Positions 24,942-31,795 of a stretch of 55,580 nt of DNA are shown here, piece by piece. The stretch is from a virus (lineage: Duplodnaviria; Caudoviricetes). A program made the position numbers and the translations under genes. The DNA lies in IMG/VR virus record IMGVR_UViG_3300036884_000126, positions 1-55,580 of that record. One strand, 5' to 3'. Positions within the stretch are counted from its first letter, which is position 1. Each line of letters starts with the position of its first letter. The notes below the pieces were generated by a model. The model did not search any database. It was not told the DNA's origin and saw only the letters and a list, made by a program, of their open reading frames with translations.

Positions 24942-27281
24942 ATGCGCTCGCCTGTGGCCGAGGTTTGCGAGAACGTCGCCCGCATCCTCCAGCCCGGCAA
25001 GCTGGGCGGTGGCATCAACCTGAAGGAGCCGGCGTTCGAAAAGCAGCGGCAGTTCATCGAAGCTACAAACAAGCGTGTCATCGTACGGGCCGGTCGGCGG
25101 GGGGGGAAGACGATCGCGGCTTCAATTCGCGCGGTGCGTGCCTTCCTGTCGGGTCATCGCGTGTTGTATGCGGCGCCAGTCATCGAGCAGATCAACCGCT
25201 TCTGGACGGAAGTCTGCCGGGCGCTTCAGGAGCCGATTGACGCCGGCATCTACTACAAGAACGAAACCCGGCACATGATTGAGTTGAAGGGCACGGAGCA
25301 GGCGATTACCGGCAAGACCGCATGGGATGCTGATTCACTTCGCGGCGACTTCGGGGATCTATTGATCTTGGATGAGTGGCAGTTGATGAACGAAGATGCG
25401 TGGGGCCGGGTTGGGGCGCCGATGCTGCTAGACAACAATGGCGACGCGATGTTCATCTACACGCCGCCGTCGATTCATTCGCGATCGGTGACGAAGGCCG
25501 AAGACCCGCGCCACGCTTCGAAGATGTTCAAGCGGGCTGAGGAGCAAATGGCGGCCGCCGCAGCCGCGGGGAAGGAGAGCCGCTGGCTGGCCATCAGTTG
25601 GCCATCGGATGACAACCCCACGATCTCGGAAACTGCGCTCGCCGAGATCACGCAGGACATGACGGCCCTGTCGTACCGGCAGGAAATCATGGCCGAGGAC
25701 ACCACGGAAGTTCCGGGAGCGCTTTGGAGCCAAGCGTTGATCGACGGCACCCGGGTAGACAAGGCTCCCGCTCTCGTCCGCATCGTCGTGGGGATTGACC
25801 CGAGCGGCAGCTCGACGACCGAGGCGGGAATTGTTGCGGCCGGCATCGACGCCCAGGGGCACGGCTATGTGCTGCGTGACGCTTCACTGCTCGCACCTTC
25901 TCCCGAGCGGTGGGCGGCGGCCGGCATTGAGGCGTATGCAGCGCTGCGGGCGGACCGGATCGTGGCTGAGCGCAATTATGGCGGCGATATGGTCAAATCG
26001 ACGATTCACGCCGTCGATGAGAAAGTCTCTTACCATGATGTGGTCTCGACCCGGGGGAAGATGGTGCGTGCGGAGCCGATCTGCGCCTTCTATGAAAAGG
26101 GAATGATTCATCACGTCGGCGAATTCCCGGAGCTGGAAGACGAGATGTGTTTGTCTGCGGGGACATTGGTCGCGACACTCCGAGGAGATGTTCCAATAGA
26201 ACAAATCAAGACTGGAGATTTTGCTCTTACTCGTCGCGGATTTAGGCCGGTTCTTTGGACTGGATGCACTGGAAGCAAAAATACGCTGACGGTTCAGACA
26301 GTCATCGGGGATATAAGCTGTACCGGTTCTCATCCTCTTGCTATAATCCAGGAGAATTTGAGCTGGAAAAAAGCTCGAGATGCCCGGCCAGGAGATCGGA
26401 TCTTATGCCGCGGAAAGCTATCAGGGAGTGCGTCGAGTTTCGGGGAGAGAAATACTATCGGGCAAGCGATGGCTATTTCAAAACGTCCCATTCTCGCGGC
26501 TGTCGGCTCCTTCATCGCGATGTCTATGAGGCTCATTACGGAGCGATTCCGGCCGCCCATCACATCCATCATGGCGATTGGGATCGATCAAATAATGATC
26601 CCGCAAACCTATTCGCCAAGTCTACAAGGGAGCATAAGCGGATTCACGGACCAAGCGGTGCTTGGGTGGAGCCTCCTGCCGAAAAAAGCCCAAAGAGAAA
26701 AGAAGAATGGAGCCGGAGAGCGCCGCATACGGAAGTTTGCCCTGAATGCAGACGACCATTCGAGACGCGGGGCAACAGGACCATCTTTTGTTCCAGAAAA
26801 TGTCGGGACATCCGTTATCACCGCGATCACCCCGAATGGTATCGCTGAACCTGTGTACAATCTACATGTTGCTGACTCTCCCGAGTTCTTCGCAAACGGA
26901 CTTCTAGTTCACAATTGCTCCTATGTGCCAGGTGCGAAGAGTCCCAATCGAATGGATGCGCTGGTCTTTGCGATGACGGACTTGATGCTTGAGAGCCAGG
27001 CGCTCGGCCTGATAGATTTCCTGAAGGATGGCGGAGCGCAAAAAGTGTTGGACACCATGAACAAGACGGCGCGGGCTACAACGCTTGTGAAGCCGATGAT
27101 CCCGGAGCAAGCACCGACCTGCCCGGAGTGCGGGGCCGTGACCGTGATTCGGGCGGCGGGCGGGAGTTTACACTGCAATCAATGCGGCATCACATGGGCA
27201 GACAAGCAGACGAAGCCCACGGACGGGCACGGCATGACGCGGGGGGAATACCTGATGAAGGCGGATGAGAGGCGCCGATGA
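24942..27281 (+). CDS. terL: Terminase large subunit with an intein and a C-terminal Zn ribbon
   Basis: Walker A AGRRGGKT; LRG...LILDE; YRQEIMAE; nuclease IVVGIDP, ERNYGG, SPNRMDALV. Confidence 0.93.
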   Translation: MRSPVAEVCENVARILQPGKLGGGINLKEPAFEKQRQFIEATNKRVIVRAGRRGGKTIAASIRAVRAFLSGHRVLYAAPVIEQINRFWTEVCRALQEPIDAGIYYKNETRHMIELKGTEQAITGKTAWDADSLRGDFGDLLILDEWQLMNEDAWGRVGAPMLLDNNGDAMFIYTPPSIHSRSVTKAEDPRHASKMFKRAEEQMAAAAAAGKESRWLAISWPSDDNPTISETALAEITQDMTALSYRQEIMAEDTTEVPGALWSQALIDGTRVDKAPALVRIVVGIDPSGSSTTEAGIVAAGIDAQGHGYVLRDASLLAPSPERWAAAGIEAYAALRADRIVAERNYGGDMVKSTIHAVDEKVSYHDVVSTRGKMVRAEPICAFYEKGMIHHVGEFPELEDEMCLSAGTLVATLRGDVPIEQIKTGDFALTRRGFRPVLWTGCTGSKNTLTVQTVIGDISCTGSHPLAIIQENLSWKKARDARPGDRILCRGKLSGSASSFGERNTIGQAMAISKRPILAAVGSFIAMSMRLITERFRPPITSIMAIGIDQIMIPQTYSPSLQGSISGFTDQAVLGWSLLPKKAQREKKNGAGERRIRKFALNADDHSRRGATGPSFVPENVGTSVITAITPNGIAEPVYNLHVADSPEFFANGLLVHNCSYVPGAKSPNRMDALVFAMTDLMLESQALGLIDFLKDGGAQKVLDTMNKTARATTLVKPMIPEQAPTCPECGAVTVIRAAGGSLHCNQCGITWADKQTKPTDGHGMTRGEYLMKADERRR
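26339..26394 (+). promoter_or_regulatory. Extended -10 promoter and SD for the intein-nested HNH gene
   Basis: TGcTATAAT at 26339-26347; AGGAG at 26390-26394, 10 nt before ATG 26405. Confidence 0.6.
26405..26848 (+). CDS. HNH homing endonuclease overprinted in an alternative frame inside the terminase intein
   Basis: GYF...LLHRDVYEAHYGAIPAAHHIHHGDWDRSNNDPANL....REHKRIH plus C-terminal CPEC...FCSRKC Zn finger. Confidence 0.9.
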   Translation: MPRKAIRECVEFRGEKYYRASDGYFKTSHSRGCRLLHRDVYEAHYGAIPAAHHIHHGDWDRSNNDPANLFAKSTREHKRIHGPSGAWVEPPAEKSPKRKEEWSRRAPHTEVCPECRRPFETRGNRTIFCSRKCRDIRYHRDHPEWYR

Positions 27282-28420: not shown

Positions 28421-28492
28421 GAAGGCTGACTGATTCCGTTCTCGGCCCTTTCCCAGGGACAGAACGCTGGAGTGCTGAAGCGCAGGACCAAT

Positions 28493-28533
28493 AGGCCCGC
28501 TCGGCTGCAAGGCTGGGCGGGCCTTTTGGTTTT
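28493..28533 (+). terminator. Intrinsic terminator-like hairpin immediately before the portal start
   Basis: AGGCCCGCTCGGCT-GCAA-GGCTGGGCGGGCCT followed by TTTGGTTTT. Confidence 0.65.
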
Positions 28534-28534
28534 G

Positions 28535-31500
28535 ATGGCCAACAGTACCTCGCTCGCAATTCGACCGCTCGGCCAGCTCGTAGCATCACTATCCCGCTAC
28601 GGCCAACAACTCTATCAACCTCCGAAAGATACGATCCGCGGCGTCGAGCCCGATACGTGGTATTCCCCCCTGCAACCCGTCAAGCCGATTGGGCCGCCTG
28701 GTATCGAGCCGCGCGGCTTTCAGTATTATGCAGGGCAAAACCTGTTCTGGACTCCTCGCGCGGACGCGGAGTATTGCCTGTCACCAGAGACGCGTGTATT
28801 AAAGGCTGACCTGTCTTGGATCGCCGTTTCCGAGTTACGCGTTGGAGACGCGCTAGTTGGATTTGAAGAAGAGAGTACTGGTGGTCATCCCAGGAGTTAT
28901 AAAAAATCCATCGTTACATCCATAGGTATCGCTAATCTTCCATGTCACGATTTGATATTCGAGGATGGCTCAAGGGTGCGCGCATCGGATAAGCACTTGT
29001 GGCTGGCTAAAAGACAACAGGCTTCCAAGTTGGAGTGGATCGCCACAAAGGATCTTAGTCCGGTCAAGAAAAATGACAGTTTTATACGCGTGCTTAAGCC
29101 CTTGGAACCTTGGCGATTTGATGACAGTAGGGATGCCGGATACTTGGCTGCCGCTTTTGACGGAGAAGGGCATCTGCGAAAAAACATTCGCATGGGATTC
29201 GCTCAGAAATCGAATGCCATGCTGAACGCCGTGATTGGATTTCTAGGAGATAGGAATTTCAATTCCACTGTCAAGCGGCGATCCCTGTGGGACGTGACCG
29301 AACTCGAAATCCTTGGAAGAGAAGAAGTTCTTCGGTTTTTGGGTTCCATTCGGCCCTTGCGCCTTTTGAGCAAATTCGATCCCGACAACCTCGGCGAATT
29401 GCGTTCAAGAAACAGCGTAGCGATACGGTTGAAGACTCCTGTTGGCAATCAACGGGTAATTACGATTGGAACAAGCACCAAAACATTAATTGCGGAAGGG
29501 TTCGCTTCACACAATTCAGCCGCGGACCTCAAGCAACTGGCGACATATCCCCTCGCCCGCATCGCCATCGAGAACGTCAAGGATTCGATGTGCATGGCGA
29601 ACTGGAAAATTCAACCCAAGCCGGCGCCCGGAGAGAGCCCTAAGGCGGCGATGAAGCGAGGGATTGGCGACAAGAACCTGGTGAAGCTCAACCGATTGTT
29701 CGAGATGCCCGACCGCGAGCATACCTGGCCGGAATGGTTGCGTCCGCTTTTGGAAGATATGCTGGTGATCGACGCCTGGACGATTCTCATCCGCAAGACG
29801 TTCTCGGGAGAGGTTGTGGAGTTGCCGGTCCTCCGGGGTGATAGCATCGTCCGTTACATCGACGAGAACGGGTGGACGCCGATGGCGCCCGAGCCGGCCT
29901 ACGCGCAACTCTGGTGGGGTCTCCCTCTCGTCAACCTTTCCACCGATCAGCTTATTTACAAGCCCCGCAACATCGTCCCGCGCAACACGATCTCCTCCCA
30001 ACTCTACGGCATGAGCCCGACCGAAGAGCTTGCTCGAGAGATCCAGATTGGCATGAAGCGGCTGGAGTTCACGCTGGCCTATTATACGGAAGGTTCAATC
30101 CCCGGCGTCGTGCAAGTCGTGCCGAAAGGCATCCCCGTGGAGAAGATCGCCGAGGCCATGCAGTGGATGAACTCTGAGCTTGCCGGGAATCTGGCGAAGC
30201 GGCGCCAGTGGCAACTTATCCAGGGATGGAAGGATGATGGCAAGGATGAGCAGATCATCTTCTCGAAGGAGCAATTACTGGCCGACCCCTTCGATGAACT
30301 GCATATCCGCAAGGTCGCCTACGGCTACGGGATCTCTCCGCAGCGCCTGGCTCGCCAGATGAATCGAGCTTCAGCCGAAGCATCCCAGGAAGCCTCTGAG
30401 GTTGAGGGGTTGATGCCCTACTTCTCCTCGCTCAAAAGCCTCATCGACTTCATCGTCCAGCGCAAGATGGGCTATGCCGACTACGAGATGATGTTGGAGC
30501 CGCTGGTTGAGCCAGATCAAGTTAAGCAATCCCAGGTGCTTACGGCCTACGTCAAGGAGGCCATCATCACCCGGGAAGAGGCGCGCGAGAAGCTTGGTGA
30601 GGAGCCATCGGGAGTGCCTGAAGCTGGCCAGCTAATGGTGACAACCGGGCAGGGCGCGGTGCCCCTGGGCGCGACCACGCAGCCGGCCGCCAAGCCGGGA
30701 GAGGAAGGAGCAGCCGATGGAATTCCTGATAAAGGAAAGGGTGGAGCGGGAGCATCGGGAAGCGATGAAGAGCTTGACGCCGATGGAAACCTCGTCGTTG
30801 CTGACGGTCGCGGCAAGCCCCGCAAGCCTGCCAGCACCAACAAGCCCAACGGGGGCGCGGCGGCGAAAGCGAAAACGCAGAACCGGCCTATTGGGTTCGC
30901 GGCTGGAACCGTGATCGTCGAGCTGGAACCTCCGCAGTATGGAGTTCTTGAAATTCACGAGGAGGCCCTGGTTAAGGCAAAGCCACGGGCGAAGGATCCG
31001 CCCGTCATCCATCCGGGCCGGATGGCGCCGGCGTCGATCCTTGGAAAACACAAGCTGGAGCGAGACCTCACGAAAATCTTCCGCACCATGCACCGGAAGA
31101 CGACAAAAGTCATGGCTGCGGCCCTGGGCCTTGCGCACGGGCATTTGGCAAAGGCCGAGCCGGACGCCGATATGACCCTGCGGCAGGCCATGGACAGTCT
31201 TGCCGCCGAGTGGGAAACGATTGCCCGGTTGGCAAGGAAGCCCCTCACGGATGCAGCCCTGGCAGGTGCTTCCAAGGGCAGTCTCGAACTGGAGATTTCA
31301 GCCGAGGACATGCTGACCGGCATCAATGAGACGGCGCGTGACTGGGCTTCAAACCGGGCGGCCGAGTTGGTGGGGATGCTGCGCACGCCCGAGGGCGAGC
31401 TCATCGCGAACCCGAACGCGAAATGGGCCATCAGCGACACGACGCGCGAAAAGCTGCGCTCCGTTATTGCGGACGTGTTCGGGCAAGAGGGCAAGATCAC

Positions 31501-31795
31501 GCTACGCGACGTGGAGAACCGGATCGAGCAATCGGGAGTTTTCTCAGACGTGAGGGCTTCGACGATCGCACGAAACGAGATTGCCCGGGCGCAGACTCAG
31601 GGGAACTTGATGTCCTGGCAGGAATCAGGGCTGGTGCAGAAGGTCGCATGGAAAACATCGGACGATCACGACCAAAGCGATATTTGCGATGAGCTGGAGA
31701 AAGACGGTCCGTACGACGTCGACGACGTGCCGGACCTGCCGGCCCACCCGAACTGCTTGTGCGCCCTGATTTTAACGGAGGCTGAGGAGCAATAA
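28535..31795 (+). CDS. Portal protein fused to a Mu gpF-like head morphogenesis domain, with an intein
   Basis: LEDMLVIDA, YGMSPTE, ITREEAREKLG portal features; C-terminal RASTIARNE...W....D..C...PAHPNCLC. Confidence 0.88.
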   Translation: MANSTSLAIRPLGQLVASLSRYGQQLYQPPKDTIRGVEPDTWYSPLQPVKPIGPPGIEPRGFQYYAGQNLFWTPRADAEYCLSPETRVLKADLSWIAVSELRVGDALVGFEEESTGGHPRSYKKSIVTSIGIANLPCHDLIFEDGSRVRASDKHLWLAKRQQASKLEWIATKDLSPVKKNDSFIRVLKPLEPWRFDDSRDAGYLAAAFDGEGHLRKNIRMGFAQKSNAMLNAVIGFLGDRNFNSTVKRRSLWDVTELEILGREEVLRFLGSIRPLRLLSKFDPDNLGELRSRNSVAIRLKTPVGNQRVITIGTSTKTLIAEGFASHNSAADLKQLATYPLARIAIENVKDSMCMANWKIQPKPAPGESPKAAMKRGIGDKNLVKLNRLFEMPDREHTWPEWLRPLLEDMLVIDAWTILIRKTFSGEVVELPVLRGDSIVRYIDENGWTPMAPEPAYAQLWWGLPLVNLSTDQLIYKPRNIVPRNTISSQLYGMSPTEELAREIQIGMKRLEFTLAYYTEGSIPGVVQVVPKGIPVEKIAEAMQWMNSELAGNLAKRRQWQLIQGWKDDGKDEQIIFSKEQLLADPFDELHIRKVAYGYGISPQRLARQMNRASAEASQEASEVEGLMPYFSSLKSLIDFIVQRKMGYADYEMMLEPLVEPDQVKQSQVLTAYVKEAIITREEAREKLGEEPSGVPEAGQLMVTTGQGAVPLGATTQPAAKPGEEGAADGIPDKGKGGAGASGSDEELDADGNLVVADGRGKPRKPASTNKPNGGAAAKAKTQNRPIGFAAGTVIVELEPPQYGVLEIHEEALVKAKPRAKDPPVIHPGRMAPASILGKHKLERDLTKIFRTMHRKTTKVMAAALGLAHGHLAKAEPDADMTLRQAMDSLAAEWETIARLARKPLTDAALAGASKGSLELEISAEDMLTGINETARDWASNRAAELVGMLRTPEGELIANPNAKWAISDTTREKLRSVIADVFGQEGKITLRDVENRIEQSGVFSDVRASTIARNEIARAQTQGNLMSWQESGLVQKVAWKTSDDHDQSDICDELEKDGPYDVDDVPDLPAHPNCLCALILTEAEEQ
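28775..29515 (+). mobile_element. Intein (247 aa) in the portal with an in-frame LAGLIDADG motif
   Basis: AEY|CLSPETRVL, ASDKHLWL, YLAAAFDGEG, TLIAEGFASHN|S. Confidence 0.92.

Follow-up and report, generated by a model that had tools for sequence, protein, structure and literature searches.

A complete HNH endonuclease gene in the −1 frame of a phage terL intein, and the recurrence of this layout among related inteins

The viral contig studied here (IMG/VR record IMGVR_UViG_3300036884_000126, 55,580 bases; hereafter the window, to which all coordinates refer unless another record is named) carries, in its gene for the large terminase subunit, terL, an intein whose centre is occupied by a complete HNH endonuclease gene written in the −1 frame of the same strand. 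The same layout recurs in related inteins, and over the overlap the nuclease frame is subject to purifying selection in the family. The layout is real and is kept by selection, and the weight of this conclusion comes from the family.

We consider it probable that the insert is a composite selfish element, that is, a mini-intein with an HNH gene in its −1 frame that is spliced out of TerL while the homing nuclease is made separately. Its first part would be a class-1 Hint-type mini-intein, and its second a complete I-HmuI-type gene, with an HNH_3 core and a zinc ribbon, set into the intein's endonuclease slot in the −1 frame. Ribosomes translating terL would read through the nested gene in frame 0 and add ~130 unstructured filler residues that join the two halves of the splicing domain, and protein splicing would remove filler and intein together, restoring TerL. 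The nuclease would be made apart, by internal initiation at the ATG at 26405 behind an AGGAG motif, and most likely cuts intein-less terL in co-infecting relatives, where repair would copy in the whole element (homing). The splicing blocks would then be under selection in the intein frame and the centre in the HNH frame, frame 0 needing only to lack stops there.

The terL intein and the HNH gene inside it

A single open frame spans 24942–27281, and the intein frame is uninterrupted. The intein begins with CLSAGT, contains a block B with SCTGSHP (T59/H62), and ends in LLVHN, followed by Cys; the splicing residues C1, T59, H62, H255-N256 and C257 are all present, as the initial annotation of 26148–26915 had reported, and C1, T59, H62, N256 and C+1 are invariant across 25 aligned inteins. 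Among Pfam models, Hint_2 scored above its cut-off (29.6 bits vs. 28.4) and Intein_splicing was marginal (35.2 bits, 0.6 below the cut-off of 35.8). The insertion point lies between Met402 and the Cys of EDEM↓CSYVPG, and five terL relatives (L002–L006, 80–92% identity; L-numbers denote relative loci) lack exactly the 768 bases and read EDE(M/Q)↓CSYVPG. Guanine-cytosine (GC) content is 0.51 in the intein vs. ~0.62 in the exteins. In the AlphaFold model of the intein, pLDDT (predicted local distance difference test) is 93–98 for residues 1–90 and above 93 for residues 219–257; Foldseek returned 41 PDB matches at E ≤ 10−3, with mini-inteins on top (6frg, E = 10−7; gp41-1, TMt 0.87). By motifs, hidden Markov model (HMM) thresholds, HINT fold and precise absence from relatives, the insert is a class-1 Hint-type intein. 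The intact blocks, together with cultured phages whose only annotated terL has this layout, suggest that it splices.

The centre of the intein frame, previously described as featureless, is so by each measure applied: it has no Pfam match besides Hint, there are no conserved columns among the 25 inteins, and residues 92–218 are predicted with a pLDDT of 38–66 and no secondary structure. The same DNA read in the −1 (= +2) frame encodes the HNH nuclease with a zinc finger that had been proposed for 26405–26848. This frame is open over 26255–26848, including 50 open codons upstream of the ATG at 26405, and its TGA sits just ahead of block F; the third frame is interrupted by 11 stops over the length of the intein and by 5 inside the HNH open reading frame (ORF). 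HMM searches on the frames of 26148–26915 placed Hint_2 in the intein frame and HNH_3 in the −1 frame (E = 8.9 × 10−13, 48.1 bits, cut-off 24.8); the CxxC...CxxxC ribbon matched Pfam YacG weakly (E = 0.011), and PHROG 15471 (HNH endonuclease) matched the nested ORF at E = 5 × 10−20. A phmmer search with the HNH ORF found 2,240 relatives at E ≤ 10−3, of which the best 150 are all short proteins. In an alignment of 35 HNH sequences, H37, H55, H56, H77, C112 and C129 are invariant and N64, N68, H81, C115 and C133 nearly so; the nested ORF of the window has every one of these residues. The AlphaFold model of the HNH frame, built on this alignment, has a mean pLDDT of 92.4. Its best PDB fold match is I-HmuI (1u3e; probability 0.98, E = 7 × 10−3, TMq 0.36, 16% identity), and its tail matches YacG (4tma, Foldseek probability 0.84).

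The relatives came only through phmmer and alignment-seeded scans. Neither a word-indexed search of proteins nor a viral scan seeded with the single HNH protein gave a match, and none was found at 10−5 when 50,697 phage records were searched by tblastn with the window HNH, though its relatives do match cultured phages.

Recurrence of the layout and selection on its two frames

Related loci were searched in six frames with HMMs of the HNH alignment and of the N and C splicing blocks. Five terL relatives (42–50% identity) carry an intein at this insertion site, and in 5 of 5 the HNH ORF is at −1 and the terL frame is open; the DNA of one of them is only 34% GC. The viral contigs gave 28 distinct intein units: the HNH is at −1 in 25, at a doubtful +1 in one and in frame in another, and the last is a mini-intein. 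An HNH always in frame in homologues, which had been named as an outcome that would count against a dual-coding intein, was therefore not what was seen. The HNH ORF is intact in 24 of the 25 units at −1, the exception (L008) having one stop. When loci were seeded with the HNH alone, 11 of 19 viral loci were nested, all at −1, and the remaining 8 match the HNH core only and have no intein. The 48 HNH-seeded genome and metagenome loci comprise 33 with the full-length protein and 15 with the core only and no intein; in 26 of the 33 a contiguous intein surrounds the HNH, always at −1, a further 4 are either broken or cut off on one side by a contig end, and 3 have no intein. Pooled, the survey of off-frame HNH genes in phage inteins that the initial annotation had called for yields 45 distinct units with both frames open (window included), all at −1. 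The HNH-nested family is large and spread across phage groups.

Several different sites in terL contain nested units, sometimes two in one gene. Two inteins in one terL were seen in L098 (383–1279 and 1652–2581), L097, L137 and L167; both inteins of L098 have a nested −1 HNH gene, and the second of L137 is a 139-codon mini-intein. The layout is also present, unannotated, inside the terL coding sequence of three cultured phages (Tetrasphaera phage TJE1, Rhodobacteraceae phage LS06-2018-MD07 and Clostridium phage phiCDHM19), and is therefore compatible with a viable phage.

Two compensating indel errors, or two real frameshifts, could in principle have displaced an HNH domain that was once in frame, and more distant inteins (L101–L119) do have an HNH core in frame (HNH core only, E = 10−5 to 10−10). 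The sequencing runs and the family both speak against this. In 14 runs ~100% of the 31-mers sampled from 25900–27100 are present, and contigs from 4 runs cover the stretch, at a depth of 3–60, without a single substitution or indel. The −1 register is shared by 45 distinct loci, which come from many samples and from three cultured phage genomes; the nested ORF has its own start codon; and the wobble pattern described below reflects long-term selection in the shifted frame. For practical purposes, an artefact is refuted. From 25900 to 26150 there is in addition a short, diverged, low-depth contig (run X10) that stops at 26150, the intein's first codon; it is possibly an intein-less allele from the same community, and we did not use it as evidence.

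The initial annotation had put the probability of an open intein frame over the ~148 codons at (61/64)^148, about 10−3. The arithmetic is correct, but the null model is not appropriate, as becomes clear when the HNH protein is held fixed, synonymous codons are resampled and the openness of the intein frame is scored. The window's intein frame then stays open in 44% (uniform codon usage), 87% (own usage) or 100% (permutation) of resamplings, and is therefore not open beyond chance. Across the family the result is different. In 24 of 24 intact relatives the intein frame is free of stops, and their third frame has 1–32; AT-rich members give P ≤ 0.005 for an open intein frame under synonymous resampling; and the equivalent frame in six free-standing HNH relatives has 4–13 stops. 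Unlike at the window alone, the open intein frame across the family is far beyond chance.

Comparison of the two frames by codon position shows which of them is under selection. L082 and L083 are the closest pair, with 88% identity over the HNH region. Within the N splicing domain their differences number 9, 3 and 14 at intein-frame codon positions 1, 2 and 3. In the centre the corresponding numbers are 3, 35 and 13, these being HNH-frame positions 2, 3 and 1, so that, counted in the HNH frame, positions 1, 2 and 3 have 13, 3 and 35 differences. The wobble position switches between frames also in L132 vs. L135 (centre, HNH positions 1/2/3: 50/33/92) and in L123 vs. L132. The HNH frame of the family is therefore subject to purifying selection over the overlap. 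This holds for the family and not for the window copy, since no relative was found closer to the latter than ~52% HNH identity.

The nested gene of this particular phage might be a relic, no longer expressed or active, in an intein that is inherited vertically and whose frame 0 stays open because a stop would kill terL. Decay does occur in the family. One base that distinguishes L008 (1605–2060) from the near-identical L007 and L009 is a W-to-stop change in the HNH frame and a G-to-E change in the intein frame; it cuts the HNH ORF into 48 + 103 codons and leaves the intein frame open, an example of decay of the nested gene under an open terL. L153 has a frameshift in its HNH frame, and the intein frame of Vibrio phage 1.238.A is broken. 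Further, an open +1 frame requires no special codon choice of the window HNH protein, and dN/dS of the window copy has no close relative to rest on. In the window, however, the ORF is intact at 147 codons, it keeps all invariant and nearly invariant residues of the 35 aligned members as well as its start codon and AGGAG, its model has a pLDDT of 92, and 24 of 25 related units are intact, so we regard a relic as unlikely. L153, a contig of a Saccharibacteria metagenome-assembled genome, has over 239–1259 an N block, the frameshifted HNH and a C block in three different frames, and is a broken or mis-assembled copy.

Besides the nested state, the HNH family is found in two others. Full-length free-standing homologues adjoin terminase genes in 4 of 4 cultured phages examined (PAE1, CL2, Shemara and BP10). 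In Vibrio phage 1.238.A (L146, NC_055735; ~1500–2890) terL is apparently split: the intein frame hits stops ~40 codons into the HNH region, and the −1 HNH ORF lies between the N half and a separate ORF, annotated as a ‘hedgehog/hint domain protein’, with the C splicing block and the C-extein. Lactobacillus phage CL2 (L144) has at 2487–2771, 3′ of the free-standing HNH gene, an unannotated ORF that matches the intein C block (E = 4.9 × 10−6); no N block was found in its annotated terL, and this is possibly another split arrangement. In a quick tree of 58 HNH rows, free-standing and nested members are interspersed, and the nested label needs 7 changes, of which the starred branches force only 1. 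Divergence of the splicing domain and of the HNH are weakly correlated (Spearman 0.26, 985 non-independent pairs), too weakly to tell whether the two always travel jointly. Free-standing genes beside terL, genes nested out of frame and genes between split-intein halves, the three states postulated in models of intein evolution, would all be represented within this one lineage, and it is conceivable, and we put it forward tentatively, that the dual-coding intein is the general intermediate between them. A free-standing nuclease would pass through it to turn into an intein domain or to give rise to a split intein, and if the transitions are recurrent, the strict −1 register would be a coding constraint, in that the +1 frame of the HNH gene can stay free of stops and the other frame cannot.

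Table 1. Features of the terL locus in the window (↓, intein insertion point)
Feature	Position	Strand	Evidence
Nested HNH endonuclease ORF, −1 frame, 147 residues; ATG 26405, TGA 26846–26848	26405–26848	+	ORF; phmmer; PHROG 15471; AlphaFold
HNH_3 catalytic core (HH...N...N...H), −1 frame	26507–26641	+	Pfam HNH_3; conserved residues; I-HmuI fold match
C-terminal zinc ribbon of the HNH protein (CxxC...CxxxC), −1 frame	26738–26803	+	Conserved Cys; Pfam YacG; Foldseek YacG
Shine-Dalgarno-like AGGAG, 10 nt 5′ of the HNH start codon	26390–26394	+	Sequence
terL precursor ORF, 779 residues including the intein	24942–27281	+	ORF list; Pfam Terminase_6C; PHROG terminase large subunit families; intein-less relatives L002–L006
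N-extein: ATPase domain and most of the nuclease domain; ends ...ELEDEM	24942–26147	+	Empty-site alleles EDE(M/Q)↓CSYVPG
Intein, 256 codons (terL codons 403–658), frame 0: C1...TxxH...HN	26148–26915	+	Pfam; aligned inteins; AlphaFold; GC
N-terminal splicing domain (blocks A, B), residues 1–85	26148–26402	+	N-block HMM E = 1.2 × 10−40, self included; pLDDT
Intein-frame read-through peptide, residues 92–218	26421–26801	+	Unconserved; predicted unstructured; no Pfam match besides Hint blocks
C-terminal splicing domain (blocks F, G: PVYNLHV...FFANGLLVHN)	26802–26915	+	C-block HMM E = 2.2 × 10−21; pLDDT 94–97
C-extein, first residue +1 Cys (26916–26918), CSYVPGAKSPNRMDALV...	26916–27281	+	ORF; empty-site alleles

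Two further observations concern the window. The TerL C-terminus has a zinc-ribbon-like motif, CPECG...CNQCG, at 27105–27210 (residues 722–756), with weak matches to Pfam zinc ribbons (E = 0.004–0.05). The portal gene (28472–31795, portal and Mu F-like domains) holds a second intein at ~28800–29500 (CLSPETRV...ASHN↓S) with an ordinary in-frame LAGLIDADG domain (Pfam LAGLIDADG_3, residues 221–293) and a dip in GC to 0.45–0.51.

Expression and function of the nested nuclease

In 19 of the 25 units at −1 a start codon lies at most 15 nt from where HMM position 1 aligns, at about intein residue 84–91, and 14 of 25 have a Shine-Dalgarno core of at least 4 bases. Several units have a −1-frame stop just 1–8 codons 5′ of the start. 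Among 19 best library relatives inspected, 6 (P0002, P0004, P0005, P0007, P0011 and P0015) have a Met aligned to query residue 1. These features make separate translation, through internal initiation at the ATG at 26405, the best reading of how the nuclease would be produced.

The alternative that the product arises by programmed −1 ribosomal frameshifting from terL, giving a fusion of N-extein, N-intein and HNH without separate initiation, is in accord with the −1 register of every unit and with the 50 codons that are open upstream of the ATG in the window. A canonical slippery heptamer (X XXY YYZ) is, however, absent from the window and present in the permissive window of only 2 of the 25 units, a −1-frame stop precedes the start codon by 1–4 codons in L090, L093, L098b and L121, and the start codon is conserved at the start of homology. 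RNA folding at the HNH start is unremarkable (z = +1.1), which speaks against frameshifting and also led us to reject a regulatory hairpin there. We therefore judge frameshifting to be very improbable. An internal promoter was likewise rejected, there being no promoter-like site on the + strand 5′ of the HNH start.

The behaviour of the insert fits that of a selfish element, in that its empty sites are precise, its GC content is below that of the exteins and the intein is sporadic among relatives. Identity of the window to L002 drops from 0.83–0.97 to 0.71–0.77 from ~25930 on, and identity to L004 rises to 0.92–0.99 downstream of the intein; this mosaic is compatible with co-conversion and equally with ordinary recombination. 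The HNH family is missing from 4 of the 5 contigs of intein-less relatives (14–72% complete), the fifth having a weak zinc-ribbon match only.

Kala and colleagues reportedly described, in 2014, a terminase-associated HNH nuclease, HK97 gp74. Were the nested protein a helper of DNA packaging of this kind, and not a homing nuclease, it might be expected near terminase genes, as the free-standing full-length homologues of PAE1, CL2, Shemara and BP10 are. Free-standing homing endonuclease genes also adjoin their target genes, and adjacency to the terminase therefore does not discriminate between the two roles. Against a packaging role stand the terL relatives at 80–92% identity that have no intein, 4 of 5 of whose contigs (with the completeness given above) also have no family member, the Pfam assignment to HNH_3, and a best fold match that is a homing endonuclease. 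The same idea has been raised for a brucellaphage gene, according to the accessible text of PMC4422536, which also cites the HK97 work. For the window we consider a packaging helper quite unlikely, less so than frameshifting but more so than a relic.

Several points weigh against the composite element as we read it. The Shine-Dalgarno spacing of 10 nt in the window is rather long, near the start of homology 6 of 25 units lack a clear start codon, and 11 of 25 have no Shine-Dalgarno core of at least 4 bases. Since no promoter-like site on the + strand precedes the HNH start, the product would have to come from the terL message while this is translated in another frame, and no RNA runs are listed among those on record as containing the stretch. 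The contigs of the four runs are not fully independent, as their source may be the window's own samples. For the window by itself, the HNH protein leads one to expect an open intein frame (P = 0.44–1.0), and protein searches and scans returned no relative above ~52% HNH identity to the window copy. The wobble switch is weak in a fourth pair, L094 vs. L097 (centre 68/78/58, 195 gapped columns). Finally, the fold match of the HNH model to I-HmuI, with its E-value of 7 × 10−3 and TMq of 0.36, is weak. The proposal made at the outset, of an overprinted, separately translated gene whose imposed junk peptide is spliced out, nevertheless agrees with the comparative tests (−1 register, start codon, wobble switch, folds, lack of slippery sites and lack of indels in further assemblies), which favour it as a model.

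Under this model an essential phage gene tolerates ~130 meaningless read-through codons, because the intein excises them, and a nuclease gene can live there in another frame. Annotation pipelines miss a gene in such cases, since the records of cultured carriers annotate only terL. These carriers, e.g., TJE1, would suit the study of internal initiation in a translated ORF, of splicing across an unstructured insert, and of homing by a separate nuclease.

Comparison with known systems

The initial annotation regarded the arrangement as a distinct architecture of mobile intein. As a claim of novelty this does not hold, since out-of-frame intein endonucleases are described in the accessible text of PMC4422536 and of two preprints (10.1101/2025.01.02.630785 and 10.64898/2026.09.14.751524). 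In the literature searched, which does not extend to the supplementary phage lists of 10.1101/2025.01.02.630785, we found no description of the window's HNH_3 and zinc-ribbon family as intein-nested.

One of the closest described layouts is that of brucellaphages, all of which, according to the accessible text of PMC4422536, have an intein-encoded HNH gene out of frame within terL; the record NC_019446 (brucellaphage Tb/Pr, Perisivirus) annotates both genes, gp07 and gp08, with ‘intein present’. As in the window, the host is terL, the intein is contiguous and holds in another frame a complete same-strand ORF with HNH and zinc ribbon, and the intein C block is homologous (E = 2.6 × 10−8). Unlike in the window (−1), the brucellaphage HNH is in register +1. 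The brucellaphage intein also sits at another terL site (...GNRAD↓C...VHNC↓VIIDDP), towards the N-terminus of TerL, in a part taken to be the ATPase domain. The domain order of the brucellaphage nuclease is reversed, with zinc ribbons first and the HNH core last; it gives a partial core match to the window family HMM (E = 1.2 × 10−6) and a blastp match to the window HNH over 44 residues (E = 4 × 10−4).

In actinophage inteins, the accessible text of bioRxiv 10.1101/2025.01.02.630785 reports antisense LAGLIDADG and VSR-like endonucleases as well as a same-strand endonuclease VII-like gene ‘in reading frame 3’, and proposes that free-standing nuclease genes invade inteins. As far as that text describes it, the same-strand case shares with the window the strand, the register (frame 3 = −1), terL among the hosts, and an in-frame centre that is predicted to be unstructured. 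The actinophage nuclease is assigned there to endonuclease VII (IPR004211), and the window's to HNH_3 with a C-terminal zinc ribbon; the two are set apart by these descriptions, and Endonuclease_7 was not among the Pfam matches of the window HNH at E ≤ 0.1, which are HNH_3 and YacG only.

For a cyanobacterial dnaX intein, the accessible text of Phillips, DeSimone and Gogarten (bioRxiv 10.64898/2026.09.14.751524) describes a LAGLIDADG endonuclease in an overlapping +2 ORF, whose frame is under purifying selection while selection on the host frame is relaxed, and proposes a secondary invasion of a mini-intein. An overlapping-frame endonuclease in a contiguous intein and the same selection pattern are common to that case, as described, and to ours; the cellular host gene, the LAGLIDADG nuclease and the unrelated intein distinguish it. 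Both preprints, in the text accessible, cite Gorbalenya 1998 (‘non-canonical inteins’).

Fractured genes, in which a free-standing endonuclease gene lies between the halves of a split intein (Dassa et al. 2009, PMC2677866, accessible text), resemble the window in the placement of an endonuclease gene between the N and C splicing halves, and Vibrio phage 1.238.A shows this split state within the same HNH family. Unlike in fractured genes, the intein frame of the window is uninterrupted, and one precursor and cis-splicing are therefore expected. The ShiLan insertion in actinophage DNA methylases is described, in the accessible text of Arsenault et al. 2025 (PMC11855218), as a hidden out-of-frame HNH gene with an open host frame; that insertion is reported there to have no detectable splicing domain, whereas the Hint blocks of the window are intact. 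I-HmuI itself is intron-encoded, unlike the window HNH, whose zinc ribbon stands where I-HmuI has C-terminal DNA-binding modules.

Taken against these systems, the general design is already published, and what is new here is a large HNH_3 and zinc-ribbon family in a strict −1 register; the value of the present case therefore lies in its breadth and in its clean selection signal, and not in a new principle.

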